Source: an uncultured Clostridia bacterium (GTDB lineage: Bacteria > Bacillota > Clostridia > Christensenellales > Borkfalkiaceae). From it: a DNA stretch of 64,000 bases. Within the stretch, counting starts at the first letter, position 1. Every line of letters begins with the position of its first letter. Below the pieces are notes generated by a model. It was not told the DNA's origin, searched no databases, and was given only the letters and a program-made list of their open reading frames with translations. The translations under genes were made by a program, and so were the position numbers. The DNA lies in the NCBI GenBank assembly GCA_944328445.1, contig CALVHO010000040.1, forward strand, positions 8,018-72,017. The letters are read 5' to 3'. Below are positions 1,525 to 22,298 of this stretch, piece after piece.

Positions 1525-1528
1525 TGTT

Positions 1529-2554
1529 TCACGCTCCTAACAAACTCTGATCAAACGCAAACAGAGCCTCATTGATTTCAAAAATATTGTAATTACCTTT
1601 GCTGATAAAATATTCGATGATAATATCGAACTTGTTGCTGTGAGATAACGCAAAGCCCGCCTTGCGAAGCATATCTTCGGTTTCAGCCAAGGAAAGCTCC
1701 AAGGATATTGCAAATGCAAGTGCGGTAGGCTTGCTCGGCTTATAGTGAACGTCGCTGCGAATTTTGGAGAACAGCTTGCGGTCAATGTTTGCCTTTTTAT
1801 AGCACTCGGCATCGGTCATACCTTTTTCATCGATTTTACGCAGAAGCATTTGCGAAAAGCTCTCGTCAATCTGCTTTAGCTTCGCATCAAGGTCATCTTC
1901 CGCAAGCATAGCCTTGCAATCGCACATTTTAAAAGAATCAATATCAGATTTCTTTTTCCTTGTGCGTGGAGCCATCGGTGGGAGCGCATTCATACGAATA
2001 CGTTCACGGCTGTAATCGGTATGCTCGTCCACGTAGTTATCGTCGATATATTCGGCAATATCCGAGATCAGCTTCTCGCTGATCTTGTATGCCGCCTTGT
2101 CGAAGATGACGATATAGACCGTCATTTCGTTTTCAAGAAGAAAGTCGCTGATGACGTCGATAGCAACCTTCAATGCTTGATCTTTGGGATATCCGTACAC
2201 ACCCGACGATATAAGCGGGAACGCCACGGTTTCGCATTGGTGCTCTTTCGCAAGGGCCAAAGACTCGCGGTAGCAGGATTCAAGCAACGCCTTTTCTCCG
2301 TGCTTACCGTCATTGTAGATAGGACCGACGGTATGTATTACATACTTCGCAGGCACATTATATCCGCCCGTGATCTTCGCCTTGCCCGTCTTGCAACCAC
2401 CAAGTGTTCTGCACTCGGCAAGCAATCCCGAGCCTGCGGCGCGGTGAATCGCACCGTCAACACCTCCACCGCCGAGCAAAGACTCATTGGCAGCATTGAC
2501 AATGGCATCTACCTTCATTTTTGTTATATCGTTTCTTACTATTTCAAGCGGCAT
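1529..2554 (-). CDS. Macrodomain (O-acetyl-ADP-ribose deacetylase-like) fused to C-terminal XRE-like HTH
   Basis: AIVNAAN[17 protein letters not shown], [20 protein letters not shown]; C-terminal [19 protein letters not shown]-like region. Confidence 0.85.
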
Positions 2555-2566
2555 GGGTGCACCTCC

Positions 2567-6618: not shown

Positions 6619-6630
6619 CTTTGTTCTCCT

Positions 6631-7749
6631 TTACATTCTGTCGCCGTAAGGCAAGGATTTTATATAAGTCTCCATCCATTGCCAATCCGGAATATATCCT
6701 TTGGGTGAGTATTTGAGTGTCTTATCAATTATTGGTGTTCCATCAGTTTTCCGTTGTATTGGAAGAGTGAATCCAAAATCTGTCCTAATGTGCGTATTTA
6801 ATTCTCTACCAAAAGGAAAATACTTATATTTACTTTCGTTCATTATACAAGTCGTTATAAAAAGCTTTGTGGCATTAGATATTCCATCTTCAAATTCAAG
6901 TACGGATACGTTTTGTGAAGTATAAAAATCCTCAACTTGTAAGTATGAAGAACCCAGACTACCGCCAAGAGCAACCGTAATGCAACCTGCTTTATACGGC
7001 TTTATAACATTTCCTTTGTCGTCCAGAACATAATCGACTTTACCTGCGACGCCGTTGTTATCCGCAGATCTTCCTACAAAATTTACACTTGGATCATCCA
7101 TACTCATTACAGAATAATCCAGTTTATTTCCCATAGTTATCGTGCAAATATCCTTTAACAAAAAATATTCCCAATTGGAAGTGTCTAATTTGATACTTGT
7201 GTTGTCTGTGTTTTTAGTGGTTAGCGGATGATAATGTAATGACTTTATGTATTTTTCCATCCAGTCCCAATCAGGAATATATCCTTCATCGGAATATTTA
7301 CAAGTATCATCAATATATGGGGTGCCATCAGCATTGTGTCTAATGGGGAGATTGATGATCGTATCCTTCAAATGAGTTTTCCATTTTCGACCAAAGGAAT
7401 ACTTTGGTCTTTCTTGACACAATATGGTAGCAATAAATATTCCGTTATATGGATTAAGATTTTTGTTATATCCTGCTACAATATCCGTTGTTCCGATAAA
7501 ATCAACATCCATATAGTTGGCATAACCAACCGAGCCTTGTCCATTGCAGATGAATATAATGCAATTTCCTTTTTGCATGAGATCTATATCTTTAATGCAA
7601 TGAATCATAACACCATTATCATCTTTCTTTGCACCTACATAAAAGCACTCATTACCTTCTTCAAGCATTCCTTGATTAGCTTTTCCGTTTTCCAGTTTGA
7701 ATAATTTATGTATAACGAATCCTTTCCAATCAGCAATATTAAGATTCAT
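6631..7749 (-). CDS. Restriction-modification specificity subunit (two TRDs; BcgI beta-like)
   Basis: Two internally repeated halves, each ending GYIPDWxWMExYIKSL; overlaps the stop of the upstream methylase gene. Confidence 0.75.
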   Translation of the reverse strand: MNLNIADWKGFVIHKLFKLENGKANQGMLEEGNECFYVGAKKDDNGVMIHCIKDIDLMQKGNCIIFICNGQGSVGYANYMDVDFIGTTDIVAGYNKNLNPYNGIFIATILCQERPKYSFGRKWKTHLKDTIINLPIRHNADGTPYIDDTCKYSDEGYIPDWDWMEKYIKSLHYHPLTTKNTDNTSIKLDTSNWEYFLLKDICTITMGNKLDYSVMSMDDPSVNFVGRSADNNGVAGKVDYVLDDKGNVIKPYKAGCITVALGGSLGSSYLQVEDFYTSQNVSVLEFEDGISNATKLFITTCIMNESKYKYFPFGRELNTHIRTDFGFTLPIQRKTDGTPIIDKTLKYSPKGYIPDWQWMETYIKSLPYGDRM

Positions 7750-9664
7750 ATATTCTACCTTCTTTCATAAGGTATGCAAGATAATTGTTCAAAGATTGTT
7801 GGAAATCTTCTTCAGAAAGTTTGCTATAATCAGTTTTCATATAGGCTTCGCACAGCCATTCAGATGTGCCATCCACAATTGCTGTTGAAGATTTTCCGTC
7901 AAGTGCTTTTTTGTTATTAAACAAATACAGCCACTCATTCTCAATAACCTTCCATTTGGAATTGTTGTTTTCATCGAATTGTTCGATTCTTCCAAGATTC
8001 TTTTTCTTTTTGAATCCGTCCTCCTTACAATAGCCAAAAAATGTTTCGTTGACGGTGCCATCTGCTTTTTTGTGAGGCTTTCCTAATGTAAACAACATAC
8101 AACACGCACAAGCTGAAGCTCCCGGATAGAAGATTTCATTGGGAAGCGTAAATACTGCTTCAAGTGTGTTATTCTTAAGCATTTCTATTTTTTCATTTTC
8201 TATAATAGCACTTGTACCAATAGCAGCAGATACAGGTAACAAAACAGCAAGTTTAACGGTTTTTACCGGCTCATTCTTGTTTTCGCGTTCTTTATTCATT
8301 TCCGCTATAACATCAGATAAATAATGTATAAAAACTAATCCCTTGGTAGGATCTTCTTTTCCGTCTTTTGCTTTGCCCCAATCTTTTTTGTATCTTTCGG
8401 GAATACCAATCGGTTTTGCATTGTAAGGAGGATTCATCAAAACAATATCAGGATTAGCATTTTTTATAAAGGATTTGCAATCAAAACAACTTCCAAATTT
8501 AATGTTAGAATTGCCATCACCGTGAATAAGCATATTTGTAGTAGACAAGCCATACGCTTTTTCTTCGTTTTCAATACCATAAATATGCTCTTTTTTCACA
8601 ACATCTTGCAAAGCTTTTGCTTCTTCTTCGGTTTTGCCGCGGCTACAGTCAGCCAGTGCCTTTACCATCGCCTGAACCAAAAACGAACCGCTACCACAAG
8701 TTATATCAAGGACACGCTTTGTCCTATCCACTTCTGTCAGCCTGCACATAAATTCTGTAATGTGATCGGGAGTAAAAGCTTGGTTCTTATCAGCCTTACC
8801 GGTATATTTGTTAAAAGCAATAAAGAAAAGATTTAAGATGTCTTGTCCTTCAGAACTATTAGTATCAATATATTGATAAATATCCATAAGGATAGTATCT
8901 AAAATTTTAATCCAATGTGTAATAGTGAGCTTCTTAACTTTTTGATCGTTAAGAACATTCTTTTGAAGCAATTCTATCTTTTTAGCTTTGTTTTCGGAAC
9001 CATCAAGCAAACTATCCAATGTAGACTCGATAGCTGCACGAATTTGTTTTTCATCCATTACAGCCCAATGAGCATCAAGCTTTTTCTTGAGATTCTCGTC
9101 AATCTTCTTTGCTCCAAACTTTTCAACTAAATTTTTAAGATATAACAGAGTTGTTCCTACGAATTGGCTACGGAGTCTTTCATCAATATCCATTTTATGA
9201 AGCAATTCGTTTAGATCGTAGGTGTTTTTCAAAACTTTTTCTCTATCGTTTTGCTTACTTACATCAAACAACTTCTCGTAATGTTCCATTGTGTCAAGAA
9301 CGCTCTCATCAAAGAGGACAAATTTATCTTCAACAAATGATTTCCACACTTTTATTTTATCATTATTGGTGTTAGCAAGTATACAAATAATCTTCTTATT
9401 CTTGTGCAAAGCACGTTCTTCATCCAAATATTCAGCGAGCTGTGCTTCATCAGCTTTTTTGAATATTTGCTTAGTTTCAACAAGAATAACAATATCACCT
9501 TTTTCAAAACGAATATCCAATTTGAAATGGGTGATAGGATGTCCCACTGCCTTTTCAAGTGCTGACTTTGAACCCGCTTCTTGCACATAACTATATTCGC
9601 CGCCTTCAATGTTGGCTGTCAAGTATTGCTTACCGATTCTCTCTATCATATCATGACGTGTCAT
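7739..9664 (-). CDS. Fused restriction endonuclease-N6-adenine methyltransferase (type IIB/IIG, BcgI alpha-like)
   Basis: Start set at MTRHD (GGAG RBS); N-terminal DIRFEKGDIVILVETK PD-(D/E)xK-like motif; motif I VLDITCGSGSFL; motif IV NPPY. Confidence 0.8.
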   Translation of the reverse strand: MTRHDMIERIGKQYLTANIEGGEYSYVQEAGSKSALEKAVGHPITHFKLDIRFEKGDIVILVETKQIFKKADEAQLAEYLDEERALHKNKKIICILANTNNDKIKVWKSFVEDKFVLFDESVLDTMEHYEKLFDVSKQNDREKVLKNTYDLNELLHKMDIDERLRSQFVGTTLLYLKNLVEKFGAKKIDENLKKKLDAHWAVMDEKQIRAAIESTLDSLLDGSENKAKKIELLQKNVLNDQKVKKLTITHWIKILDTILMDIYQYIDTNSSEGQDILNLFFIAFNKYTGKADKNQAFTPDHITEFMCRLTEVDRTKRVLDITCGSGSFLVQAMVKALADCSRGKTEEEAKALQDVVKKEHIYGIENEEKAYGLSTTNMLIHGDGNSNIKFGSCFDCKSFIKNANPDIVLMNPPYNAKPIGIPERYKKDWGKAKDGKEDPTKGLVFIHYLSDVIAEMNKERENKNEPVKTVKLAVLLPVSAAIGTSAIIENEKIEMLKNNTLEAVFTLPNEIFYPGASACACCMLFTLGKPHKKADGTVNETFFGYCKEDGFKKKKNLGRIEQFDENNNSKWKVIENEWLYLFNNKKALDGKSSTAIVDGTSEWLCEAYMKTDYSKLSEEDFQQSLNNYLAYLMKEGRIYES

Positions 9665-9701
9665 AGTAATTCTCCTAATAAAAATTATGCTTTTCAATGC
9701 T

Positions 9702-10988
9702 TTATTTCACATATACTTTTTCACTTCCACGTCCAACGACTTTAATCAAGCCGTAATCTCGCATTTGCTTCGCAAGCGTGAAAGCGCGGGTTTTCTTAAG
9801 TCCGAGCAGGTCTTGGATTTCCAAATCGGTGATTTTTCCATTCTCGTCTATATAATCAAGAATCTTCTGCATTTGTGCAGTAATGCCCGTTCCGCTTTCT
9901 TTGGCGGTCGTACGATTCATATTGGGAAGAATGATTTTGAAGGTGTTGGAAGTAACCTCAATTCTCGGTTGCTCGGAGCAACTCGCATACAAATTATAAA
10001 TCTTACGAATACCCGTGCCGTAGGACTCAATCAAGTGCAGACGGTGGAAGATATCAGCAAGATTTTTGTTTCTCGGCTGAGAAATGCCGCTGCGAATATC
10101 GTCGGGAGAAAGACCGGGGAGAAGTCCGCCGATAGAAATAAACTCGATTTCCTTGTCATTTACGTTAATAATAATGCTGCCGCTAAAGCTGTAATCTCGG
10201 TGTACGAGCGCATTAAGCAATGCCTCGCGCAAAGCTTCTTCGGGATAGTCAACCTTTTCGATGCGCTCAAGACCTTTGAACGTAGCGGTTGTTTTATTGC
10301 AGAGGGCAAGATATGCGAAAGTGCTATCAAGCTGTTCAAAAATAGAACCACCGAACTCCTTGCTATCACGGAATTTTGTATTTGCTTCGTCCGCAAAAAC
10401 AGCTACCTTGGTGGTATGAGAGCATTGATCGGAAATGACAAGCGCCAAATTGCTATACATTTCTTCTGATTGAACGGTTACGCCCAATGCGCGATATTTA
10501 TTGGGCGCGAACTCTACGTTGTAACGGTCAAATGCTTTCTTTGCGCTATCGAACGTCAGCTCCTGCTCCATAGAACGCATACTCTCAAAGTTGTCACCGT
10601 CGGATTCCTTAATCATTGCTCTGATCTGCTCGGGAGAAGCAGGAACAGAGGACGTGCCTTGACGAACAAAAACGCCACTCGGCTTCAATCCTTTCGCTTT
10701 CAAATAGTAAGGCTTGAAAGAACCCTCGCTGACCTTAATGCGGATCGTTTGATTCTCTTGGAGCGTATATTTTACAAACATTGTAACGTCGGGCAAAATG
10801 GCATCTCGGATGCCGTTGGTGATACGGGTATATACCTCATCCACATTATCAAGCTCGGTTACGTTTCCTTCGTTATCAATTCCAATGTAAATAGTACCGC
10901 CATCGGTGTTTGCAAAAGCGATAACTTCCTTATAAAGCTCATCCGTAACTTGTGCCTTGAATTCAATATTTTCGGTTTCGAATTTCAT
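9702..10988 (-). CDS. Schlafen/AlbA_2 domain + HATPase_c_4-like + C-terminal wHTH protein
   Basis: Start MKFETENIEFK (GGAGG RBS); AFANTDGGTIYIGID; REALLNALVHRDY; ESYGTGI; C-terminal HTH. Confidence 0.85.
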   Translation of the reverse strand: MKFETENIEFKAQVTDELYKEVIAFANTDGGTIYIGIDNEGNVTELDNVDEVYTRITNGIRDAILPDVTMFVKYTLQENQTIRIKVSEGSFKPYYLKAKGLKPSGVFVRQGTSSVPASPEQIRAMIKESDGDNFESMRSMEQELTFDSAKKAFDRYNVEFAPNKYRALGVTVQSEEMYSNLALVISDQCSHTTKVAVFADEANTKFRDSKEFGGSIFEQLDSTFAYLALCNKTTATFKGLERIEKVDYPEEALREALLNALVHRDYSFSGSIIINVNDKEIEFISIGGLLPGLSPDDIRSGISQPRNKNLADIFHRLHLIESYGTGIRKIYNLYASCSEQPRIEVTSNTFKIILPNMNRTTAKESGTGITAQMQKILDYIDENGKITDLEIQDLLGLKKTRAFTLAKQMRDYGLIKVVGRGSEKVYVK

Positions 10989-11254
10989 ACCGATTCCTCC
11001 GCATAATATGATTTCTATTATTATACACCGAAAATTCGCTTTTGTCAAGCGAATAGAGCGAATATTCAGCGAATTTTCAAAAGAAAAATCAAATTTATAG
11101 CGATTTTTTTGAGTTTGCACACTAAAAGTGCAAGTTTGCACACTTGGATTCGTAGAATTATGCAAGAAAGAAAACTCAAAACAAGGCTTGAATTACACTT
11201 TTCTGGGCGAACTTTTACTATTCAACTACACTTTTCCGGACGAACTTTAATAGT

Positions 11255-11280
11255 AAAAGCGGCGAGAGCACTCCCGCCGC
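11255..11280 (-). terminator. Rho-independent terminator downstream of tnpV-DUF6809
   Basis: Minus strand GCGGCGGGAG-TG-CTCTCGCCGC-TTTT. Confidence 0.7.
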
Positions 11281-11286
11281 CGTGTG

Positions 11287-11553
11287 TTATTCAGTTATTG
11301 TTTCAATGGCAATCTGCATACCAAGTTTGAAAGCGTACTCAAAGATGGCTGCTTCTGCGAGGCTCATATACTCACTCCAACAATCGTGAAACTTTTCAAA
11401 GACTTCTTTTTGCTCGTCCGTGAAGCTCTTTTCCAAGTCCTCGTGGTGTCTTGCCATATAGCCAAGCAGTTCTTTCATCTCTTTGGAGTTGGTTCTGCTA
11501 TCTTCTTGCGGTATGATGTTTCCGTGCCAAAGCTCGTTGATGATCGACTTCAT
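11287..11553 (-). CDS. Small conserved mobile-element protein (DUF6809-like)
   Basis: MKSIINELWHGNIIPQE...AIFEYAFKLGMQI; ATGA overlap with tnpV; GGAGG RBS. Confidence 0.6.
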   Translation of the reverse strand: MKSIINELWHGNIIPQEDSRTNSKEMKELLGYMARHHEDLEKSFTDEQKEVFEKFHDCWSEYMSLAEAAIFEYAFKLGMQIAIETITE

Positions 11554-11915
11554 TGATAGATTACCTCCCGCAAAACGATTTCTTCCGCGCTTGCCTTGAT
11601 ATTGTTCATTTCTACTACCCAACGGAGCATATCCCGAGCCTTCATATTCTCGTCTATACCTCTTTCGGCAGTGAGGCTGGAGATAATGCTTTCAATCATC
11701 GTTTTTGCTTCAACATCAATCTCATAGAGCCGCTGATTGAGCGTACCTTCCGAGAGAAGATTGGTGTAACGCCCTTTGCGATGCGCTTTGAGATATTTGA
11801 GGTGCAATCTTCCGTACTTGCCGATCTCCTTTTGTTCGGGGAGTTCAAGCAAGGGGTAATATTGCTCGCCTCTGAGTTCGTAGGTAATTCCGTTTTGTTC
11901 AATGTACTTTTCCAT
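11550..11915 (-). CDS. tnpV: TnpV family transposon-encoded protein
   Basis: NGITYELRGEQYYPLL, IGKYGRLHLKYLK, WVVEMNNIKASAEEIVLREVI. Confidence 0.85.
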   Translation of the reverse strand: MEKYIEQNGITYELRGEQYYPLLELPEQKEIGKYGRLHLKYLKAHRKGRYTNLLSEGTLNQRLYEIDVEAKTMIESIISSLTAERGIDENMKARDMLRWVVEMNNIKASAEEIVLREVIYQ

Positions 11916-11988
11916 ATATTGCACCGTCCTTTCTTTTGGTGCTTTAAGTGTACTACAAAGGCGAAAATACTGCAAATGTACCGATTAG

Positions 11989-12025
11989 AAAATACGAGAA
12001 ACGTCCGAAAACGCTCTCGTATTTT
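11989..12025 (-). terminator. Terminator-like hairpin closing the polymerase operon
   Basis: AAAATACGAGA / TCTCGTATTTT inverted repeat just after the 12032 stop; T-run on both strands. Confidence 0.6.
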
Positions 12026-12031
12026 TTGTAT

Positions 12032-12871
12032 TTAGATATTTAATTTTACGCGGCTCACACCGTTGCTTACCTCACGCAAAAGGATGGCAGCAGGGATTTT
12101 GCTTAGCCACTTTTTGCTGAAATTCGTATTGCTATAATAGCAATCGAAGTTAGCAATCGGGAGTACCACCCAATCGGTATCGGTCGGCTTATTCGCTTCG
12201 CAATAGGCAATCACGTCGCATACGACCTCAAACGGAACACCGCCGAGGTCAAGCGCGGCAATAGCGTTTTCTCTTTCGGGAGGTAAAATATATTCCTCGG
12301 TTCGCAACGCGCCAAGCTCCAAGGCATCAGCAAGAATATCGTCGAAGCGCAATGCCCACGCGGCTTTGGTGTTGAGTGCGAAGATCGGCACTTGGAGCTG
12401 TCTCACCTTCTTTTTCCACTCGGTCTTAAAGCCTTTTACAATCAAAGCGACGGTCGTTTTCGCCTTTTCGCTTACAGCATCGGGGTTCTTTTTTACAAAC
12501 TTTACGATATTCTGCACGTGGCGGTAATACCATCCCTCTCCCTTGGCATTTACAAGCTCGGGAAAGTCCGAGGAAAACGCGCCGAAATTGGTAATCGGCT
12601 CGTCCTCATTTTTATCGGGAATACTGCACCAAGCACAGAGAGCCTTCCTTGCATATTCTACGCGCTCGTAAGGATTACCCCCGCGTAAGCTACCGTCTTG
12701 ATTGTGGAACAAATAGCCTCGTGCGATTATCGTCAGTATTCTACCGAATCCTTCGAAATCGGTGATGGTTTTGAAAGTGAACCTGCCAAGATAGGAGAGG
12801 TCATGCTTGCTTGCGGCAGAATAGGTCGGCTTCTTGATATATGCTTGGAATTCTAACCATTCATTCGTCAT
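12032..12871 (-). CDS. Hypothetical 279-aa protein translationally coupled to the RdRP-like polymerase
   Basis: ATG 12871 overlaps the TGA (12868-12870) of the upstream gene (ATGA), GGAGG RBS; no motif recognised. Confidence 0.75.
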   Translation of the reverse strand: MTNEWLEFQAYIKKPTYSAASKHDLSYLGRFTFKTITDFEGFGRILTIIARGYLFHNQDGSLRGGNPYERVEYARKALCAWCSIPDKNEDEPITNFGAFSSDFPELVNAKGEGWYYRHVQNIVKFVKKNPDAVSEKAKTTVALIVKGFKTEWKKKVRQLQVPIFALNTKAAWALRFDDILADALELGALRTEEYILPPERENAIAALDLGGVPFEVVCDVIAYCEANKPTDTDWVVLPIANFDCYYSNTNFSKKWLSKIPAAILLREVSNGVSRVKLNI

Positions 12872-15800
12872 TTCCATAACCTCCATTTCTTCTTTTTTGG
12901 TTCTTCCACCATAAAGATGTGGCTTCGGTCGAGAGTCAGGTCAAGTACGGTAGCTGGTAACACCTCCAACGCGAACTGTCGCTTACCAAGAGCAACCGCG
13001 CATTTTACGACCTCATCGAAATCAAGCGCGCCACGCCTGCTCGGTGGGCAAATAACGTTGATACAGTTGCGGATAATCTGCGCTTTGTAATCGTCGGCGC
13101 GTTCTATACCCGAAAGCATTGTTTGCAAATCCTTACTATCACCTTTTTGCTTGGTGATATTTGTCTTTATGCCTTTATTTCGGTGCATATCGTCAAGGTC
13201 ACAGATAATATCACCGACGATTCTATAACCTCCGTGGCTGAAATCGCAAAGAACGTCCAAATAGTCGGATAATCCCATAACACCCGTAAGTGCGTAAAGC
13301 AAATGCTGCCGTTCTTCCGGTGGGGCAAGATGCCAACGAGAATCCTCCAAGCCGTGCCGCGCTTTGCGACCTTGTTGAGGTGACATATTCTCAAATAGTG
13401 AATATAGCTCATCGACCGAATAATCATTCTCCTGCCCGCGAGCGTAAAGAATACGGTAAATATCCCCTTTGCGCTTCATTTCGGACGGAATATGATTGAT
13501 ATAGCGGATACGCTGTAACGCAGTTTCATAGTCGCGGATAATAGATGCCACGCGGTCAAGCGTTGTTTTATCAAGCCGTTCTTTCCAATTGGGCAATTGA
13601 GCGAACACGAATAAGTATTCATCACTTACGGGAGAGGTTTTAACCTTTTCGGTTGTATGCTCCAGCATATATGCAAAATACGGGAGCTTTTCAAGGTTGG
13701 AGCTGATGGAGTTCCAATCTACACTCTCAAAATACTTTTTAAGTCGCGCGTTTTTTGTCGGCTCATACCACTTGTGTGCCTCGTCACTCTCGGCAATCGT
13801 TTTATAGCGCAAGAAGATACTGCGGCGCGCTCTTTTATTTTCGATATACTCGGAGAGATCGGGCTTGATGCCGCTTTTAGAGGAGTCAATTTCAAGTCCC
13901 GTGAGGATAGCAAGGGTTTCCACATCTTGGTTGTAATGCACCTTGTCCTCGCTCTTAGTATTTTCATCGTAGGCGAGAACACCGCGGTTGAGTGCGGCAT
14001 TACTGATCTGACCAACGCGAGAGGAAAAGGTGTTCCTTACGGTGACAAATCGGGCATACCAATCGTTCGCATCCGAGATCAGCGGCTCTGCGGTAGGTAT
14101 TTTCAAAAGCGGTAGCTCGGTGCTACTTCGAATCACACATTGGTTGATAAGTGGATCGGCAATGGTTTTGACCATATCACCGTCGAAGTCAGCACCTCCG
14201 AGCCGTTCGGGAATGAGCGAACGGGAGTCCACCATTATTACGTAGCCGAGGTGCGAAAAATATTTCTCACGCAACGCGCCCGGTTTAATTGGCTTTACAA
14301 GTGCTTCTTCGTTTCTTGCAATATGTGGGCTACGAAGCACGGTGTAAAATTCACTTTCGGCATAACTCGGAAGCGGAGCGTATATCTCGTTTCCACTTAT
14401 AAATTCAGCTTCAAGGCGGCGGTAAATATCGTCGCCCTTTTCTTTTAGCGTATCTTTTACAATAAACGCGATCAAGCGCAAAAGGTCATCGGACAGATAG
14501 CGGTTATCTCCCGTGACCAAGAGCTTTCCTACCGCGTACTTGGAGAGAATATTCTCAGCACGGTCGGATAGTTCCTTTGCAAATATCGGCTCGTCGATAA
14601 ACATTCCGTTTTTGGCAATCAGCTCCGCACGGTACTGTCGGCGCTCGGCTGCTATCTCTACGTCCTGCAAGTCGTCAAGGAAGTATTTGCGGCGAGCGCC
14701 ATTGTCAGCGACGAGGCGATAATAGGCAACCTCGGTGGTTTTCGTAATCCAATTACGGCTATCGTACTCGGGAGAGTCGCGCCAACCGAGAGGCAGCTCC
14801 TTTGGACGAAATTCCTCGTCAGTGATGGAGAGGGTGTTCAAGAACTGATAGTTCAGCTCGGTCGTATCTTGTGCGCCAAGCTTATCCTTACCCGACACGT
14901 AGAGTGCGTGACCGTATCTCGCACAGCGATCAAGATATTCTCTCCAAGAGAGGTTGTTACTTTCCATCCACTTGCGACCTTTGAACATACTGTCTGTCAA
15001 GATAATATCCACGTCGGTAGGATCGTGGCGCTCGCCCCACATATCTACGATATACGGAACTCCAAGCTCGGTGAACAATCCTGCAAAATCAACCTTATGC
15101 ACAACGCCCTTGATATAGGGCATACGAATCTGAAAGGAATTATGCTCGCGTCCAAGTGCTTCGGCAAGGCGCGGTGAAATAAAGCCCTCACCGTCAAACT
15201 CGGTAACCGTAATATCCGTCGTTTTCTCCACGCGGGAATATTTGCGCATCGGGTTATCCGTTCCATCGTCCTCCACCGTGATAACGTTTACGTTCTCGAT
15301 GGTAGATTGCGGATTTTTAATTACGATGATTTTCTTATCCGAGAGGATGCTCGTATTGCTATATCTCGCTCCGCTTGTAAAAAGGAGCGCGTTGTAGGCG
15401 TAGAGCTTACTGAGTTGGCAATCTCCGATATTCATATCGAGCATCATACGCTCCCGAAGCGGCTCGTACACGTCGGCACGAACGAAGGCAAGGCGGTTCT
15501 CGCGGCTCATCGAAGCCGAGCGTTCAAAAGCAATATATACGTGATCCTCTTTGCCGAAATTCATTATTCCTTCGGGGCGGAACATATACTCGGCAATCCT
15601 TTGATGCTCCAACACTCTGCCCACGGGCTTGCGGTCAAAAATACCCGAAAAGTCGATATATACGAATATGTCGCTTAACGCGTCTGATATAACATCGTTA
15701 TCGGGGTTCTTGCCTAAAGCAAGCATTGCTTGATAGAAGATCGGGCAATCGTCCTGCAAGGTTCTTTCCACCAAATATTCCTTTGAGGGATCGGTGGTAT

Positions 15801-15894
15801 CAAAATAAAAGCGATATCCGTCATCCGTCTGCCGCGCGGAAGCAAGAATACTTTGCGCCGATATTTCGGGAATGATATATTTTTTGTTTCTCAT
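12868..15894 (-). CDS. Single-subunit two-barrel RNA polymerase, eukaryotic RdRP (QDE-1/RDR) / phage SPbeta YonO-like
   Basis: Motifs in the expected order: FERSASMSR, TEFDGEGFIS, FQIRMPYIKG, LTDSMFKG, LRSPHIARNE, RLGGADFDGD (DxDGD metal site), VGQISN, AILTGLEIDSSK. Confidence 0.8.
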   Translation of the reverse strand: MRNKKYIIPEISAQSILASARQTDDGYRFYFDTTDPSKEYLVERTLQDDCPIFYQAMLALGKNPDNDVISDALSDIFVYIDFSGIFDRKPVGRVLEHQRIAEYMFRPEGIMNFGKEDHVYIAFERSASMSRENRLAFVRADVYEPLRERMMLDMNIGDCQLSKLYAYNALLFTSGARYSNTSILSDKKIIVIKNPQSTIENVNVITVEDDGTDNPMRKYSRVEKTTDITVTEFDGEGFISPRLAEALGREHNSFQIRMPYIKGVVHKVDFAGLFTELGVPYIVDMWGERHDPTDVDIILTDSMFKGRKWMESNNLSWREYLDRCARYGHALYVSGKDKLGAQDTTELNYQFLNTLSITDEEFRPKELPLGWRDSPEYDSRNWITKTTEVAYYRLVADNGARRKYFLDDLQDVEIAAERRQYRAELIAKNGMFIDEPIFAKELSDRAENILSKYAVGKLLVTGDNRYLSDDLLRLIAFIVKDTLKEKGDDIYRRLEAEFISGNEIYAPLPSYAESEFYTVLRSPHIARNEEALVKPIKPGALREKYFSHLGYVIMVDSRSLIPERLGGADFDGDMVKTIADPLINQCVIRSSTELPLLKIPTAEPLISDANDWYARFVTVRNTFSSRVGQISNAALNRGVLAYDENTKSEDKVHYNQDVETLAILTGLEIDSSKSGIKPDLSEYIENKRARRSIFLRYKTIAESDEAHKWYEPTKNARLKKYFESVDWNSISSNLEKLPYFAYMLEHTTEKVKTSPVSDEYLFVFAQLPNWKERLDKTTLDRVASIIRDYETALQRIRYINHIPSEMKRKGDIYRILYARGQENDYSVDELYSLFENMSPQQGRKARHGLEDSRWHLAPPEERQHLLYALTGVMGLSDYLDVLCDFSHGGYRIVGDIICDLDDMHRNKGIKTNITKQKGDSKDLQTMLSGIERADDYKAQIIRNCINVICPPSRRGALDFDEVVKCAVALGKRQFALEVLPATVLDLTLDRSHIFMVEEPKKKKWRLWK

Positions 15895-15923
15895 ACGGTT
15901 CTCCTTTGATAGAGAGTGGTTTA

Positions 15924-15952
15924 ATTATACAATATTTCCTCCAAAAAGTCAA
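15924..15952 (-). promoter_or_regulatory. Sigma-A promoter of the polymerase operon
   Basis: TTGACT-17 bp-TATAAT with extended TG, followed by an AAAGGAG RBS before ATG 15894. Confidence 0.75.
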
Positions 15953-16040
15953 TATGCAATTATTTGATAACTGCCCCCACAAATTTAAAAAAGTGTGAGG
16001 AACTTACGTTATCAAATTCGAGAAAAAGGAGGAAAAAGCT

Positions 16041-16271
16041 ATGCTGAAAATCACACCAAGGCAAGCGGAAAGAGTCAACCGTCTTGTGTCAGAGTTATGC
16101 GCCAACTGTGACCAAGACGGTAACTGCGTTCTGCTTGACGACGGCGAAGCACATCGCTGTGTGCAACTCATTTCCGTATACGGCATCTACTGCAATTATT
16201 TCAAAAATGCGGTACTGCCTGCGGACAAAGAACTACACGAAGAAATCCAAAAACAAAATCACAAACAGTAA
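16041..16271 (+). CDS. Cys-rich VLP-domain protein of conjugative/mobilisable elements
   Basis: CANCDQDGNC...C...YCNYFKNAVLPAD pattern; AGGAGG RBS. Confidence 0.7.
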   Translation: MLKITPRQAERVNRLVSELCANCDQDGNCVLLDDGEAHRCVQLISVYGIYCNYFKNAVLPADKELHEEIQKQNHKQ

Positions 16272-16288
16272 AAAGGAGAAATGAAAGT

Positions 16289-17215
16289 ATGAAGAAAATG
16301 AACCAAATCTATCTCATCGGTATCGACCACGGCTACGGCAATATGAAAACGGCAAACTGCTGCTTTCCCACGGGTGTGCTGAAAAGCGATACCGAACCCA
16401 CCTTTGTATCCGACCTGCTTGTATGGAACGAAAAGTATTATTCTATCGGTGTCGGGCACAAGGAGTTCAAAGCCGACAAATTCAACGACGAGGATTATTA
16501 CGTCCTCACCCTTGCCGCGATTGCGCGGGAGCTTTGGCGAGAGCGCATCACCGAAGCCGACGTTTATATTGCGGCAGGTCTGCCTCTTACTTGGGTAAGT
16601 GAGCAGAAAAGCGATTTTAAGAACTATCTGCTTCAAAACAGTGAGGTCGTATTTACCTTCCGCGAGGTGGAATACCGCATCAACATCGTAGGCGCGGAGG
16701 TTTACCCGCAGGGGTTCGCCGCTATAGTCAATAATCTGCCGAGCTTTACGGGGGTTACGATGCTCTGCGATATTGGAAACGGCACGATGAACCTGCTCCG
16801 CATCGTCAACAAGAAACCCGACGCACAGAGGATGTTTACTGAGAAATACGGCACTCATCAGTGTGCGCTTCTTATCCGTGAGGAAATGATGAAGGTACAC
16901 CACGCGAGCCTCGACGATGCTATCGTTACGGAAATCTTGAAGAAAGGCACGGCAGAGATCGACGGCGCTTATCTTGAAACCGTCGTAAAGACCGCCAAGA
17001 ACTACACGGCGGGCATCTTCCGCCGTCTGCGTGAGCACGAATACGATCCCAAGCTAATGAAGCTCTACGTGGTAGGCGGAGGCGGTTGCCTTATCCGCAA
17101 TTTTGCCGATTACGATGAGAGCCGTGTGACCGTCAATGACGATATTTGCGCTACTACAAAGGGATACGAGCGTATGCTTGAAATGCAACTGCTCCGTGGC
17201 GGTGGTCGCGTATGA
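16289..17215 (+). CDS. ParM/StbA family actin-like segregation ATPase
   Basis: IGIDHGYGNMK, DIGNGT, VVGGGG actin-fold motifs. Confidence 0.85.
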   Translation: MKKMNQIYLIGIDHGYGNMKTANCCFPTGVLKSDTEPTFVSDLLVWNEKYYSIGVGHKEFKADKFNDEDYYVLTLAAIARELWRERITEADVYIAAGLPLTWVSEQKSDFKNYLLQNSEVVFTFREVEYRINIVGAEVYPQGFAAIVNNLPSFTGVTMLCDIGNGTMNLLRIVNKKPDAQRMFTEKYGTHQCALLIREEMMKVHHASLDDAIVTEILKKGTAEIDGAYLETVVKTAKNYTAGIFRRLREHEYDPKLMKLYVVGGGGCLIRNFADYDESRVTVNDDICATTKGYERMLEMQLLRGGGRV

Positions 17216-17490
17216 CGATAAAACGGTTTAGTCTGCGCTTCAATTTAGATAACGAAGCAGAGCGCAAAGCTTGGGAACATCTGCAACCCGTTACAGACTC
17301 AAAGAACAAGACGATTATCACCGCGATAAACGCTTATTTTGAAACCGACGGGAGGATGGAAACGATCATAAGAGAAACTATCAGAGAGTGCCTAAAGGAT
17401 ATATCCGTTGTGAAAACGGAAGAAACATCCGCCGAGAAAATATCCGAGGAAGAGAATATCCTTATGGACTCGCTTGATATGTTTATGTAA
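17212..17490 (+). CDS. Probable ParR-like adaptor / RHH DNA-binding protein
   Basis: ATGA overlap with parM; N-terminal RFSLRFNL strand then helices, acidic tail. Confidence 0.55.
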   Translation: MTIKRFSLRFNLDNEAERKAWEHLQPVTDSKNKTIITAINAYFETDGRMETIIRETIRECLKDISVVKTEETSAEKISEEENILMDSLDMFM

Positions 17491-17580
17491 CGTGGCATTA
17501 CGGTGATGCCGCTTTTTTATTGCTCAAAACGAGTGCGGCATCACTTTGGCATTATGAAAATTTTAGGAGGAAAGATTTAT

Positions 17581-17889
17581 ATGAAAGCTTATTCATTCAG
17601 ACAAATGCAGGACGCGGGCATCCGCGTTGACAACTATAAGGCAAACGAGCGCGAGGGCGTATTTATCGCAACGCTTGACGTAAAGCGTTGGGGTAAAGGC
17701 AGAAACATCGTTGCCTATTTCACGTTTGAGGACGGTAGCAAGATTATGGCTGCCGCTTGGCAGAATACGGGCTATCTCGGTATCCCCGACATCGAAGAAG
17801 GAGCGCGCTTAAAGCTCACGTTTGAAAGAGCAAAGAACGGCAACTCATATCTGCGAAAAGTTGAGAGATACGAGTGTCTTACACCGTAA
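17581..17889 (+). CDS. Hypothetical protein, possibly OB-fold
   Basis: AGGAGG RBS then ATG 17581; beta-rich, aromatic/basic pattern; family not recognised. Confidence 0.6.
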   Translation: MKAYSFRQMQDAGIRVDNYKANEREGVFIATLDVKRWGKGRNIVAYFTFEDGSKIMAAAWQNTGYLGIPDIEEGARLKLTFERAKNGNSYLRKVERYECLTP

Positions 17890-17896
17890 CAAGCAG

Positions 17897-17964
17897 GACG
17901 TTTGTGTGCCAAACGTCGCACCGCCACAAGGGGGTTGTGGCAGAGATTTTAGGGGATGCCCCTA
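17897..17964 (+). other. Putative oriT region
   Basis: Three consecutive perfect hairpins (GACGTTTG/CAAACGTC, GCCACAA/TTGTGGC, TAGGGG/CCCCTA) immediately upstream of mobC-relaxase. Confidence 0.55.
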
Positions 17965-17989
17965 ATACCCCGAATGAAAGGATGGTTTT

Positions 17990-18315
17990 ATGAAAAAAGA
18001 AGATATAAGAATCGTTGCCCGAGTGACGAAAAAGAAAAGGAGCGTATCAACTCCATAGCCGAGAAATGCGGGCTAAGCACAACAGAATATATCCGTCAAA
18101 GAGCGTTGGGATTTGAACCGAGATCGGTTCCGACCGGCGCTCTTTTTGCTTTCTGCGAGAAATTGGATGCGCTCGTCGAGCCACCGTTCTCCGCAGAGGT
18201 CAACGCGGCGGCGCTCGCATTGCTAAAGGATATATCTAACACTTTGATCGCGCCGAGAAAGGAGAATATGCGTAAATGGCAACCACAGGATTCTGGCCCG
18301 TCAAAGGACGGTTAA
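17990..18315 (+). pseudogene. mobC: mobC-like RHH relaxosome protein, frameshifted
   Basis: RBS-preceded ATG 17990 reads MKKEDIRIVARVTKK then stops; adding one A in the A-run near 18028-18032 joins it to EKERINSIAEKCGLSTTEYIRQRALG. Confidence 0.65.
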
Positions 18316-19649
18316 AAGAAGTGATCGACTATGCGAACAATCCCGACAAGACCACGGCGAAGGAATACCTTGACGAGGACTTGTATGCGGCAATTCGCTA
18401 TGTGGAGAACGATAACAAGACCGATCATACGGCATTCGTCACGGGCATCAACTGCTCCAAGCATAACGCTTATCACGAAATGGTTGCCGTAAAACGCCGC
18501 TTCGATAAGCGTGGGAAGAATATTGCCTATCACGGATACCAAAGCTTTGCCGAAGGTGAGGTTACTCCCGAAGAAGCGCATCAGATCGGCGTGGAAACCG
18601 CGCGGAAGATGTGGGGCGCGAAATACCAAGTGGTCGTCACCACCCATCTCAATACCGATAACATCCACAACCATTTTGTAATCAATAGCGTTTCTTTTAC
18701 CGACGGGAAGAAATTCCGCAACAGTATTGGCGACCGTTTGGAGCTTAGAAAGATCCCCGACGCTATCTGCGCCGAGCGAAGCAAATCGGTCATTCAAAGC
18801 CACAAATTTTATAGCAACAAGAAGGCGTATTGGGCGCAAAAGGCGGGACACGTTACCCACCGTGAAATGCTGCGGCGCGACGTGGAGGAAGCTTTATCAC
18901 AGTGCATCAACCATATTGAGTTTATGGCATATCTCAAAGCGCTTGGCTACACCTTTACGCGAAATTTTGATTATGAACATCCCGCCGTTATTTCGGCGGG
19001 GTGGTCACGCTCCGTTCGCCTTAGCAACTTGAATGACAAATATACGAAGGAAAATCTCTACAAGCGTTTTCGTTGGAATCACGATCATATGGAGCAGATC
19101 AAATACCGACCGCCGAAAATGAAGCGTAAGCCTATGCTTGATTTTGAACGTCAAATGCGAGAAGCGGCACAAATGGACGGGCTTCAACTCTTGTTTGCCA
19201 TTATCGTTGAGATGTTTAAGATCTGTACGGGCAATAACGTACAAGAAGCGGATAGCCGTCCCGTATCTCCGATGATAAGAACCGAGGCATCGAAAGCCGA
19301 CAAATATATGGAAGAATATTAGCTCTTGCGCGACCACTATATCGAGTCGCCGCAGGAGCTTTTGTCATTTCAGCAGAATACGGCGACTCGTATTGCCGAG
19401 TTAGATCAGAAACGTTATGAATTACGCTTACGGATTCGCCGCGTGAAAACGTCAGAGGAAGAAGCGTCACTCAAAGAACAATGCAAGGCGCTGACAAAGG
19501 AAATGACTCCCTTGCGCAAACAATTAAAGATTTCTCTGCGCATCGAACAGCACACCCCGCGTATCAAAGAATTGCTTGATGCCGAGCGAGAAATTGAACT
19601 AAAGAACAACGGATTTATCCAAAAGAAAGATAAAACAAGAACGAGGTAA
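18276..19649 (+). pseudogene. MOBP (MobA/VirD2-type) relaxase with in-frame amber stop at 19320-19322
   Basis: IDYANNPDKT, YHGYQSF, HLNTDNIHNHFVIN motifs; the frame continues after TAG (LLRDHYIES...) to 19649. Confidence 0.8.
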
Positions 19650-19655
19650 AATGAT

Positions 19656-20505
19656 ATGAAAAACACGAAAAATATATTGATTGAAAAATTACACGCATTT
19701 GAAAACCACCCTTACAAGGTGCAAGATAACGAGGAAATGGAACGACTTGCCGAAAGCATTCGTGAGCACGGCGTTCTATCTCCCATTATCGTTCGCCCCA
19801 AGGAGAACACCGAAGATGAATACGAGATCATATCCGGTCACAGACGGGTTATGGCAAGCAAGAAGGCAGGGATTACGGAAGTCCCTGCCTTAATCGTTTC
19901 TCTCGACCGTGATGCTGCGGCAATCGTATTGGTGGATAGCAACCTCCACCGCGAGCACATTCTGCCGAGCGAGAAAGCTTTTGCTTATAAGATGAAAGCG
20001 GATGCAATGGCTCATCAAGGTTGGAGGTCTGATTTAACTTCGTGCCAAGTTGGCGCGAAGTTGAGAACAGACGAGCAAATTGCCGCTGATACCAATGAAA
20101 GTGCAAGACAAGTCCAACGCTATATCCGTCTTACCAACCTTATCCCCGAAATCCTTGAATACGTGGACGAGGGGCGCATTTCCTTTACTCCCGCCGTGGA
20201 GCTTTCCTATCTCAATGAACAAGAGCAATACGACCTCTTGGAGCAGATGGAGATCAACGATTGCACTCCGTCGCTCTCGCAGGCTTGCCGCTTCAAGAAG
20301 ATCAGCTATGAGCAAGGCTTGACACCCGAAATCATTGCCGAGATTATGAGCGAGGAAAAGGCAAATCAGAAGGAGATGTTCAAGGTGCCGATGGATTCGA
20401 AAGTATATCCCCAAAGGCAATGCCAAACAAACCGAGGACTTCGTGCTGAAAGCCTGCGAGCATTACTACAAAGTCCTTCAGCGCAAAAAAGAGCGAAGCT
20501 TATAA
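19656..20505 (+). pseudogene. parB: ParB/Spo0J-family protein with a frameshift near the C-terminus
   Basis: LSPIIVRP, EIISGHRR, DSNLHRE; near 20395 the +1 frame gives IRKYIPKGNAKQTEDFVLKACEHYY...RSL-TAA(20503-05), followed directly by the next RBS. The track ORF to 20567 has an aberrant tail. Confidence 0.65.
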
Positions 20506-20517
20506 GGAGGACTGCCT

Positions 20518-20664
20518 ATGACCAAACGCCAAAAGATCGACGTTGCGCTCCCCGAAGAACTGCTTAATTCCTTTGTCAAAGCCTTAGTGCCTGAGATACG
20601 CGCGTTTTACGACAGCGACGAGGGCAAAACCTACTTTGAAAAGTGGCTCGCTAAGCATCCCTAA
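20518..20664 (+). CDS. Small 48-aa hypothetical protein upstream of the recombinase
   Basis: GGAGG RBS; MTKRQKIDVALPEELLNSFVKALVPEIRAFYDSDEGKTYFEKWLAKHP; below the ORF-track cutoff. Confidence 0.55.
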   Translation: MTKRQKIDVALPEELLNSFVKALVPEIRAFYDSDEGKTYFEKWLAKHP

Positions 20665-20677
20665 TACCAGAAAAAGC

Positions 20678-20704
20678 CACCCGATGCTCGCGCGTCGGGT
20701 GTTT
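20678..20704 (+). terminator. Possible terminator before the recombinase gene
   Basis: CACCCGATGC-TCGC-GCGTCGGGTG-TTT hairpin. Confidence 0.45.
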
Positions 20705-20774
20705 CCGTATCGGTACAATCGACTTATCAAGAGAAATAATTATAATTATATTAGGACGAATAGGAGGTATTACA

Positions 20775-22298
20775 ATGAACGTAGTAATATACGCTCGATT
20801 TTCAAGCCATAGTCAGACCGAGCAATCCATCGAAGGTCAGTTAAAGGTCTGTTACGAATATGCTGAATCTCACAATTACACCATTGTGGGTGAATATATC
20901 GACCGCGCACAAAGCGGTAAGTTTGATAACCGCGCCGATTTCCAAAGAATGATTGCGGATAGCGACAAGCATACCTTTGAGGGTGTGCTTGTCTATCAGC
21001 TTGACCGCTTTGCCCGTAACCGTTACGACAGCGCGATCTACAAAGCCAAGCTAAAGAAGAACGGAGTTAGGGTTATGTCCGCCAAAGAGAATATCTCGGA
21101 CGATGCGTCGGGTATTCTTATCGAGGGCGTTCTTGAAAGTATGGCGGAATACTATTCCGTAGAGCTTGCACAGAAGATTAACCGAGGTATGGCAATCAAC
21201 GCAGAGAAATGTCTATCCAACGGCAGCAATCCCGGACTTGGTTACAAGGTAAACAAAGACCGCACCTTTTCGGTTGACGAGGAAGAAGCGGCAATCGTCC
21301 GCGAAATCTACGAGCGTTATGCAAGTGGTGAAACCAAAGCCGATATTGTCAAGGACTTGCAACGAAGGAAGGTCAAGACTTCAATCGGTAACGAGTTTAC
21401 CTGCAACAGCCTCAGCCATCTTCTTAAGAACAAACGCTATATCGGCATATATTTATACAAAGGAGTTGAAACGCCCGGTGGAATGCCGCGTATTATGGAC
21501 GACGACTTATTCTATCGGGTACAAGCGCTTATGAACAAGAACAAATCCGCACCCGCGCGGACTCGCGGCGAAAACGAATATCTATTGACAACCAAGCTTT
21601 TCTGCGGTCATTGCAAGGAAATGATGGTCGGCTACGGCGGCACGGGCAAGTCTGGCAGACAGTACCATTATTACAAGTGCAAGAACTCTCGCAAAAACAA
21701 ATGCGATAAGAAGGTTGTCGGCAAGGAGTATATTGAAAACCGCGTAATCGAGGTGTGTCTGCAAATACTCACCGACGATAAGATACGCTATATTGCCAAG
21801 CGTGTTGCGGAGGAATGCAACAAGAGTCCCGACAACCTTTCGATAAAGGAAATTAAGAAAGCCATCAAAGAGGTCGATACCGCGATTGAGAACCTTTGGA
21901 AAGGTATTGAGCAAGGACAAGCGGTTGATATGCTGACCGAGCGTTTGAACCGTCGCCAAGCCGAGAAAGCGGAATTAGAAGCGCAGCTCGCCATTGAGAA
22001 TAACAAGAAGATCTGTCTGACCGAAGCGCAGATATACGCCTTTCTCGATTTTATCTGTGAAATGCCGATGGACGACGTCAATAAGCGCAGAGCACTCATA
22101 AACATCTTCGTACACTCGATCTATCTGTACGATGACCATTTCACTATAATCATCAACGCAAGCAAGAAGCCTTTGAGCATTGACAATATCCCGCTTGACG
22201 AGATTGAAGAAGCTTTTGAAGGCGAAAATGAAGGAAAGGAGGGGTGTTCGTCTATGACGACACCTGCTCCACCAGCTTGGCGGCAAAGCGCCGTCTGA
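20775..22298 (+). CDS. Large serine recombinase (resolvase + recombinase + Zn ribbon)
   Basis: VIYARFSS catalytic Ser, LVYQLDRFARN, GYKVNKD, LFCGHC...YYKC...C zinc ribbon, coiled coil. Confidence 0.92.
   Translation: MNVVIYARFSSHSQTEQSIEGQLKVCYEYAESHNYTIVGEYIDRAQSGKFDNRADFQRMIADSDKHTFEGVLVYQLDRFARNRYDSAIYKAKLKKNGVRVMSAKENISDDASGILIEGVLESMAEYYSVELAQKINRGMAINAEKCLSNGSNPGLGYKVNKDRTFSVDEEEAAIVREIYERYASGETKADIVKDLQRRKVKTSIGNEFTCNSLSHLLKNKRYIGIYLYKGVETPGGMPRIMDDDLFYRVQALMNKNKSAPARTRGENEYLLTTKLFCGHCKEMMVGYGGTGKSGRQYHYYKCKNSRKNKCDKKVVGKEYIENRVIEVCLQILTDDKIRYIAKRVAEECNKSPDNLSIKEIKKAIKEVDTAIENLWKGIEQGQAVDMLTERLNRRQAEKAELEAQLAIENNKKICLTEAQIYAFLDFICEMPMDDVNKRRALINIFVHSIYLYDDHFTIIINASKKPLSIDNIPLDEIEEAFEGENEGKEGCSSMTTPAPPAWRQSAV

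Follow-up and report, generated by a model that had tools for sequence, protein, structure and literature searches.

Among bacteria, two-barrel RNA polymerases of the single-chain type have been characterized from phages, as the preliminary description of the present locus correctly stated. YonO of phage SPbeta is a processive single-chain DNA-dependent RNA polymerase (Forrest et al., 2017; PMC5467207). Eight residues, arranged as D, R/K...K, R-x-P and D-x-D-x-D, are given as invariant across all two-barrel polymerases in the searched text of Ruprich-Robert and Thuriaux (2010; PMC2919709). The searched portions of these two papers and of Iyer et al. (2021; PMC7824862) mention YonO-like genes in Firmicutes "main genomes" and "transposon relatives" and contain no gene context, partner, motif or function for them; in the same portions, Forrest et al. 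(2017) left the role of YonO-like polymerases outside phages open. Here, we analyze a 64,000-nucleotide (nt) stretch of an uncultured Clostridia bacterium of the Borkfalkiaceae (GCA_944328445.1, contig CALVHO010000040.1, positions 8,018–72,017, forward strand; below, "the window" means this whole stretch), in which a 1008-amino-acid (aa) polymerase (POL) and a 279-aa protein encoded downstream of it (the partner) are part of an integrative mobilisable element (IME). POL very probably belongs to the chromosomal and transposon-borne YonO-like set that had already been noticed. Its non-phage context is thus less unusual than the preliminary description implied, since chromosomal and transposon relatives were already in print (PMC2919709, PMC5467207, PMC7824862). 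A literature search retrieved no paper linking two-barrel polymerases to relaxase-bearing elements, to DUF6076 or to the partner protein. What we believe to be new is the obligate partner of unmatched fold, the candidate cognate sequence motif, the IME backbone, and the exchange of the module with sigma-70-like cassettes. We tentatively read POL as a DNA-dependent RNA polymerase with a specificity factor and a promoter of its own, and place slightly less than even confidence in this reading.

Family Membership and Active Site of the Polymerase

The POL open reading frame (ORF) is real, and every two-barrel motif previously ascribed to it is present in the order described: DGEG (residues 234–237), FQIR (254–257), KG (262–263), SMFK (302–305), RSPH (521–524) and GGADFDGD (566–573). 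The eight two-barrel invariants correspond to D234, R257 and K262 of the β-like barrel and to R521, P523, D569, D571 and D573 (ADFDGD) of the β′-like barrel, all of which are unchanged in a family alignment of 33 homologs sharing 63–100% identity. The Pfam family PF05183 (RNA-dependent RNA polymerase, RdRP) matches residues 519–711 with 41.1 bits (cut-off 23.8; E = 1.3e-10) and is precomputed for all 120 POL homologs listed; PHROG 8308, a family annotated as of unknown function, matches at 6e-52, and searches of NCBIfam and PADLOC (the latter at E up to 1) gave no match. By tblastn POL finds SPbeta yonO at 2e-9, and the profile of the 33 homologs is aligned to YonO by hhalign at 98.4% (E = 5.5e-15) over 410 columns, which cover both barrel regions (POL 112–593, YonO 132–560) and bring the motifs into register (TEFDGEG/EHTDGCG, SFQIRMPYIKGV/SFMVRLPWVKGL, LRSPHIAR/LRSPHLFR, and ADFDGD/DNDGD). 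The AlphaFold (AF2) model of POL, computed from the 63–100% identity alignment, is poor (mean predicted local distance difference test, pLDDT, 61; predicted template modelling score, pTM, 0.43), and we therefore make no structural claim beyond the ranking of its Foldseek hits. The top four of these in the PDB are QDE-1 (1.3e-4) and plant RDR2 (6.5e-4, 2e-3), with template modelling (TM) scores of just 0.13–0.17, and no other protein in the PDB is matched with E ≤ 2e-3. Direct PDB sequence searches with POL and with its profile returned nothing meaningful. The earlier assignment to the fold family of YonO and QDE-1 consequently holds by sequence (PF05183, hhalign) and weakly by structure (Foldseek). 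Judged from its sequence, POL belongs to the YonO family of single-chain two-barrel nucleotide polymerases and has kept an intact active site; by analogy with YonO, its most likely activity is DNA-dependent RNA synthesis.

The likeness to YonO extends beyond the ~410 homologous columns: both enzymes are single polypeptides encoded by mobile elements, and both genes stand at the head of a co-directional gene array. The differences are nevertheless considerable. Identity is ~26%, POL has 1008 aa as against 839 in YonO and possesses a clade-specific helical C-terminal region of ~400 residues, and its catalytic signature reads ADFDGD instead of DNDGD. Moreover, yonO is followed by an HU-like gene, whereas POL is followed by the partner, a protein without homologs in the phage collection, and the POL gene resides on a relaxase- and serine recombinase-bearing IME. 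With mobilisation genes as neighbours and no virion genes seen, POL in its context is not a phage late-gene polymerase. Its nearest annotated relatives are "RdRP" genes of gut phages (Thomasclavelia phage TR-TP1/TP2 and uncultured Bacteriophage sp.; also PHROG 8308), which tblastn detects at 3e-53 to 7e-42 with 26–28% identity (TR-TP1/TP2, annotated as "RNA-dependent RNA polymerase," at 7e-42). In contrast to POL, these genes lie in phage genomes next to holin, endolysin and exonuclease genes, and TR-TP1 gp4 (209 aa), encoded downstream of the phage polymerase, is unrelated to the partner (hhalign probability 1.3%). QDE-1 and RDR2 belong, like POL, to PF05183, and the eight active-site residues recur in them in unchanged order (PMC2919709). 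They are also its best structural hits, but the sequence match is limited to the C-terminal catalytic part of POL (519–711), and POL has no RNA interference (RNAi) context.

Conservation of the Two-Gene Module

Clustered at 90% identity, POL and the partner form >1,500 and ~2,000 protein clusters, respectively, all without names. We recovered 78 genome loci, all from gut Clostridia and mostly from Oscillospirales (Acutalibacteraceae, Ruminococcaceae, Oscillospiraceae, Faecousia); L-numbers below denote surveyed genome loci. The two-gene module is real: the partner follows POL in all surveyed loci that keep sequence 3′ of the POL gene, and in nearly all of the ~70 loci in which both genes are delimited its start is placed between −26 and +10 nt relative to the POL stop. 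The pairing spans POL identities from 93% down to 41%, with L038, where the partner match is fragmented, as the lone outlier. Most loci with sufficient flank encode a mobilisation backbone divergently upstream, consisting of a ParM-like protein, MobC/NikA, a relaxase (PF03432, or MobA_MobL in one clade), ParB and a serine recombinase. Phage structural genes did not turn up in the surveyed loci; the homologs are thus not confined to clear prophages, and the non-phage, mobilisable context described for the window holds. In distant clades the neighbours of POL include an AAA_25 RepA-like ATPase, a 605-aa P-loop protein, tyrosine integrases and toxin–antitoxin pairs, and four loci of the 42% clade (L063, L065, L068, and L082) have three to four iteron-like direct repeats, TGATGTCAY with a 9-nt period, which precede the POL promoter and lie at most ~330 nt upstream of POL. 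Two of these loci (L065, L068) are diverged POL–partner modules on separate contigs of one organism, Ruminococcaceae bacterium FB2012, whose record is not labelled as a metagenome-assembled genome. Contigs of 20,563–20,565 bp were furthermore found in several independent Logan assemblies (P0081–P0086, L090). They carry POL, the partner, ParM, MobA_MobL, ParB, TnpV and an nSTAND NTPase, and the near-identical length of ~20,564 bp hints at a discrete, possibly circular, form of that particular element.

The survey also bears on a function in defence, in which POL would copy RNA as QDE-1 and RDR do and thereby direct double-stranded RNA (dsRNA) or antisense RNA at phages or competing elements. 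The Pfam family of POL is indeed that of the eukaryotic RdRPs, and the cargo in the window comprises a Gabija-like pair, components of restriction–modification systems and a Schlafen-like gene. However, the cargo downstream of the partner varies from locus to locus, whereas the relaxase/ParB/recombinase backbone is conserved with POL; PADLOC recognizes neither POL nor the partner, no Dicer- or Argonaute-like neighbours were seen in the window or the Pfam-annotated loci, and POL aligns better with the DNA-dependent YonO than with RdRPs. We thus regard such an effector as very improbable and do not retain the suggestion, made in the preliminary description, that POL produces RNA or dsRNA in defence.

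Operon Signals and the Partner Protein

The POL–partner operon is preceded by a host-type σ70-like promoter (Table 1). Its hexamers and spacing were found as previously described, but the adjoining TG, which had been counted as part of the promoter, stands immediately next to the −10 hexamer and so does not make a canonical extended −10 (promoter tool: "no"); related clades carry TGnTATACT. Since promoter-like matches in this region are no commoner than in shuffled sequences, the identification of the site is based on its position and on its conservation in other loci. The partner ORF is listed with 284 aa, yet its homologs mostly have 279, which places the start at 12871 and creates an ATGA overlap with the POL stop. 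Both this overlap and the closing hairpin of the operon agree with the preliminary description.

The partner belongs to no known family. It has no match in Pfam, NCBIfam, PHROGs or PADLOC (again at E up to 1), none by tblastn in 50,697 phage records, and its profile found nothing meaningful among PDB sequences. A HMMER pass over 1.84 billion representatives collected 732 relatives; among the 150 of these that were listed, many are shorter fragments, the longest has 334 aa, and none has an added domain. The AF2 model of the partner (pLDDT 90.6, pTM 0.88; alignment of 46 sequences with 44–95% identity) predicts a helical N-terminal domain followed by a C-terminal helix-strand-helix-helix-strand-strand unit (~residues 214–277) with winged-helix topology. 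Foldseek searches with this model against the PDB and BFVD gave no significant match; weak local likenesses were to CodY, ArsR-type, Cdt1, Sso10a and IBP39 domains (E 1.7–6.7, probability ≤0.25). The modelled C-terminus is hence a candidate winged-helix-like domain. An identity of the partner with sigma-70 or DUF6076 proteins was rejected, as hhalign gave 0.07% to the sigma-like protein and 0.5% to the DUF6076 protein of the sister elements described below, in addition to the absence of Pfam and NCBIfam hits. A covariation between the putative recognition helix (KKWL vs. KKRL) and the presence of the DNA motif is confined to a single clade, and we draw no conclusion from it.

A Sequence Motif Linked to the Polymerase Gene

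When the sequences upstream of POL were aligned across clades, a conserved 26-nt motif emerged, AATTTGTGGGGGCAGTTATCAAATAA, which in the POL-proximal copies ends ~8 nt upstream of the −35 hexamer. Its core, GTGG[GT][GA]GCAGT (GTGGGGGCAGT), is found ~86 nt ahead of the start of POL in virtually every locus of the clades with at least 47% identity. This placement is kept even where the upstream gene differs, and some of the deviating offsets are due to over-extended ORF calls. A weight-matrix scan of the POL loci yielded 77 matches of at least 14 bits, all on the strand of POL (77:0) and 68 of them intergenic. In the 42% clade a diverged copy stands at the head of the POL-containing array, and no motif was found in the yonO–yonK region of SPbeta. 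Some elements have two to four copies, which are co-oriented and head other co-directional gene runs, e.g., ~90 nt past the partner stop in L028, L031, L049 and L071; no σ70-like −35/−10 promoter comes after these extra copies. Further loci noted for the motif are L077, L079–81, L060–62 and L070.

Around the motif the window contains an imperfect palindrome with perfect outer arms, ATTTGATAAC (16008–16017) and GTTATCAAAT (15962–15971), and imperfect inner arms, CCTCACA and TGTGGGG. In some clades the upstream inverted repeat shows compensatory changes, and at many motif copies it is weak or absent. An inverted repeat between POL and the mobilisation operon could mark an origin of transfer (oriT). 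This identity was rejected as the main reading because the motif accompanies POL where the relaxase is encoded elsewhere (L028, L042, L079), because two to four co-oriented copies can occur, and because the motif is absent from sister elements with homologous relaxases.

Alternatively, the partner might be an ordinary regulator and the motif its operator at the host-type POL promoter, in an autoregulatory circuit, with the actual template and start sites of POL located elsewhere. A site ending this close upstream of a −35 hexamer is in the classic position for an activator or repressor, and the winged-helix-like C-terminus of the partner as well as the single copy of the motif in the window would suit such a role. 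However, the extra copies in other elements have no σ70-like promoter at equal spacing, and a regulator would need neither the strict start–stop overlap nor the co-inheritance with POL across 41–100% identity. The N-terminal domain of the partner, with 200 residues, would also be large for a simple repressor. We hold this explanation to be rather improbable.

Exchange with Sigma-70-Like Cassettes

A genome search with the ParM-like protein identified 63 loci, many of which share the succession Cys_rich_VLP-ParM-NikA-relaxase-ParB-serine recombinase at 62–83% ParM identity and lack POL and the partner. In these sister elements (loci within L108–L150) the slot divergently upstream of Cys_rich_VLP/ParM is occupied by other genes in the orientation of POL and partner. 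In ~19–23 sister loci it contains a 382-aa DUF6076 protein (6.8e-53) followed by a 300-aa divergent protein of the sigma-70 family, whose NCBIfam matches (RpoS, SigB/F/G, RpoH, FliA; residues 58–238) range from 1e-8 to 4e-10, all below the curated cut-offs. Some ~5–7 further loci encode in this position a 298-aa protein with weak likeness to sigma region 4. Neither POL nor the partner is related in sequence to the sister DUF6076 and sigma-like proteins. A transcription-initiation cassette and the POL–partner pair are thus alternatives within one backbone. By itself this exchange does not prove equal function, but it is the strongest comparative hint that the business of the module is transcription. 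Sister loci with sigma-70-like cassettes have no POL motif of at least 10 bits, with the exception of one 16-bit match far from the slot (L118), and in L135 and L141, where the upstream slot is not resolved, the motif scores 24–25 bits.

The sigma-cassette sisters L108–L133 have a conserved sequence of their own, TAGTGGAACC...TTAGTGGGGGCAATTCCTTTGGATAT, located ~290 nt before NikA. This sequence shares its G-rich core with the POL motif, yet scores <10 bits, and may represent the oriT of the sisters or a promoter for their sigma-like protein.

Proposed Function

The slot exchange and the POL-linked, co-oriented motif favor a dedicated element polymerase, as had been suggested from the single locus. 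In the mechanism that we prefer, POL and the partner would be produced from one operon with overlapping start and stop, and POL would use DNA as its template. The partner would serve as the initiation or specificity factor, holding POL by its helical N-terminal domain and reading the motif with its winged-helix-like C-terminus. Host RNA polymerase would start expression from the adjacent σ70-like promoter and provide the first POL and partner molecules; POL plus partner would then fire from the motif, so that the element would possess a transcription unit that reinforces itself and does without host sigma factors. Where an element has extra motif copies, these would drive further units in the same manner. 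The module would in this way fill the role of the DUF6076 and sigma-70-like cassette of the sister elements, which has the same slot, orientation and backbone and presumably the same job of redirecting transcription; a sigma factor, however, makes use of the core enzyme of the host, which POL would supplant. The T7 and N4 systems follow the logic proposed here, with a polymerase of their own, an oriented promoter ~20–26 nt long and early expression that depends on the host enzyme. The polymerases of these phages have a right-hand Pol I-like fold that is unrelated to the two-barrel fold, and T7 RNA polymerase needs no separate specificity factor. We consider it possible, but somewhat doubtful, that POL and the partner form a minimal two-protein promoter-specific holoenzyme. 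Its initiation factor, with a fold not seen before, would read the 26-nt motif as promoter, be a non-homologous counterpart of sigma or TFB for the ancestral-type two-barrel enzyme, and stand in for an element-encoded sigma factor in mobilisable elements of gut Clostridia.

Several observations weigh against transcription from the motif by POL and partner. The POL clade at 45% identity has no motif, and the elements L084–87 hold both POL and a weak sigma-like gene. In the window the motif is single-copy (41.6 bits; next best 0.4) and heads only the POL–partner operon, plus the TnpV–DUF6809 unit given read-through of the terminator. The divergent mobilisation operon has no motif, and the defence cargo lies behind a further terminator and has its own perfect σ70 promoter. 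Taken together, no target regulon that would depend on the motif is visible in the window. An operator of the σ70 promoter, a priming site or an origin would be equally possible identities of the motif. On the protein side, the winged-helix call is made from secondary structure and Foldseek matches with E >1, and the POL model has a pLDDT <50 over residues 500–755, the catalytic half. Transcription of the whole 15-kb co-directional cargo array by POL, a further possibility we considered, is weakened by the two terminators and the perfect σ70 promoter before the cargo, and with it the corresponding part of the preliminary description, that the polymerase transcribes the cargo.

The missing target regulon leaves room for the main rival explanation, in which POL (with the partner) makes an RNA at the motif and this RNA serves as primer when the DNA of the excised or transferred element is synthesized. 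Priming could concern the complementary strand on single-stranded DNA after relaxase-mediated rolling-circle replication or conjugative entry, or be a transcription-primed initiation as at the ColE1, T7 and mitochondrial origins; in this explanation the motif would act in cis as a signal for priming, beside the gene of its initiator. QDE-1 can copy single-stranded DNA, which we count in favor of this explanation. The ParM-like and ParB genes imply an extrachromosomal phase, yet no Rep or primase is recognizable. Besides, in most clades there is one motif copy per element, which adjoins the POL gene, strictly on one strand. The motif also forms part of an incomplete hairpin, for which some clades show compensatory changes, and distant clades have helicase-like neighbours of POL, with the RepA-like ATPase or the P-loop protein beside it, or the iteron-like repeats in front of it. 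On the other hand, sisters with the same backbone fill the slot with a sigma-70-like cassette instead of a replication gene, several elements have two to four co-oriented copies that head gene arrays, and the inverted repeat is weak or absent at many of the copies. Moreover, the sole characterized bacterial relative, YonO, is a processive transcriptase (PMC5467207). Overall, priming, which the preliminary description had also proposed, is still a serious alternative, but we judge it rather unlikely and prefer transcription from the motif by POL and partner.

With this clade, the question left by Forrest et al. (2017) becomes testable, as it offers a two-gene operon, a candidate 26-nt site, natural "swap" controls in the form of the sigma cassettes, and carriers such as FB2012, which could serve as experimental host. 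Should the partner prove to be an initiation factor, no earlier one would be known for a single-chain two-barrel polymerase, and the finding would bear on the origin of promoter recognition in the lineage leading to the cellular RNA polymerases. The pair could also yield a compact orthogonal transcription system. Mobilisable elements would then be able, like phages, to bring their own transcription (or priming) enzyme, which may ease establishment in hosts with other sigma and promoter repertoires. Naming the large POL family would, in addition, improve the annotation of gut metagenomes.

Architecture of the Element

Annotation of the window confirmed the neighbours reported for the module, namely relaxase, ParM, TnpV, serine recombinase and defence genes (Table 1). 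The annotated genes of positions 1–24 kb include none recognized as a virion gene, and those of 1–22.3 kb none of a type IV secretion system or coupling-protein family. With a relaxase and its accessory protein and a recombinase at one end, the element is an IME of the serine-recombinase type.

Table 1. Positions of the polymerase module and of neighbouring features in the window.
Feature	Position	Strand	Remarks
Cargo array	1168..11165	−	Schlafen/AlbA_2, N6-methylase + HsdS, AAA_15-TOPRIM + UvrD, Macro, ArsC
Terminator closing the TnpV–DUF6809 unit	11281..11258	−	GC-rich; precedes cargo promoter
DUF6809	11287–11622	−	Same strand as POL, downstream of module (TnpV–DUF6809 unit 11287..11975)
TnpV	11550–11975	−	Co-directional with POL, directly downstream of POL–partner module
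Intrinsic-terminator hairpin after partner gene	11989..12025	−	−16.6 kcal/mol, z −4.35, then UUUUCU
Partner gene	12032..12871	−	279 aa; start overlaps POL stop (ATGA)
POL, single-chain two-barrel (YonO/RdRP-like) polymerase	12868..15894	−	1008-aa ORF
Ribosome-binding site of POL, AAAGGAG	15901–15907	−	
Host-type σ70-like promoter of POL–partner operon, TTGACT-17-TATAAT	15952..15924	−	11/12 matches
26-nt motif AATTTGTGGGGGCAGTTATCAAATAA	15960..15985	−	Candidate cognate promoter or partner-binding site
Imperfect palindrome around motif	15962..16017	.	Outer arms perfect, inner arms imperfect
Divergent backbone operon	16041..22298	+	Mobilisation/partition genes opposite POL
Cys_rich_VLP	16041–16271	+	First gene of backbone operon
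ParM-like actin	16289–17215	+	Backbone operon
Two small ORFs	17212–17889	+	Backbone operon
NikA-like	17956–18315	+	Family match 1.7e-9
MobA/VirD2 relaxase	18276–19322	+	PF03432, 6.6e-38
107-aa ORF without family match	19326–19649	+	Backbone operon
ParB	19656–20567	+	Backbone operon
Large serine recombinase	20775–22298	+	Resolvase + Recombinase + Zn_ribbon_recom

Homology to 20 other copies of the element ends at 22274, where the G+C content climbs from 47% to ~60%, and the right end of the element is therefore inside the window. The left end lies beyond it; homology to L008 continues down to 2841. Starting where the homology to the 20 copies ends, and overlapping the last codons of the serine recombinase, is a 134-nt direct repeat (22278–22411 and 22444–22578; 88–95% identity, spacing 166), which may be related to the insertion site. 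The G+C content is 35–40% in positions 1–9700 (ArsC, Macro, Gabija-like pair, methylase/HsdS), 43–48% in 10000–22300 (the backbone with POL) and 56–71% in the flanking genome (22300–64000). The element is thus compositionally foreign to its host, and the cargo may stem from an additional acquisition. Scans of the window for Rfam families and tRNAs gave no matches. A comparison with plasmids found no nucleotide-level match, and the protein matches were distant and on plasmid records typed as non-mobilisable.

The perfect σ70 promoter ahead of the cargo array (TTGACA-17-TATAAT, 11048..11020, minus strand) falls within the Schlafen/AlbA_2 ORF as listed, in a 5′ extension; this gene probably starts at the methionine of MKFETENIEFK near 10988. 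Further downstream in the array (2567–6618, minus strand), an OLD-type AAA_15 + TOPRIM protein of 735 aa overlaps a UvrD-like helicase of 615 aa in the arrangement of Gabija GajA/GajB, and a 92%-identical copy of this pair is present in L008.

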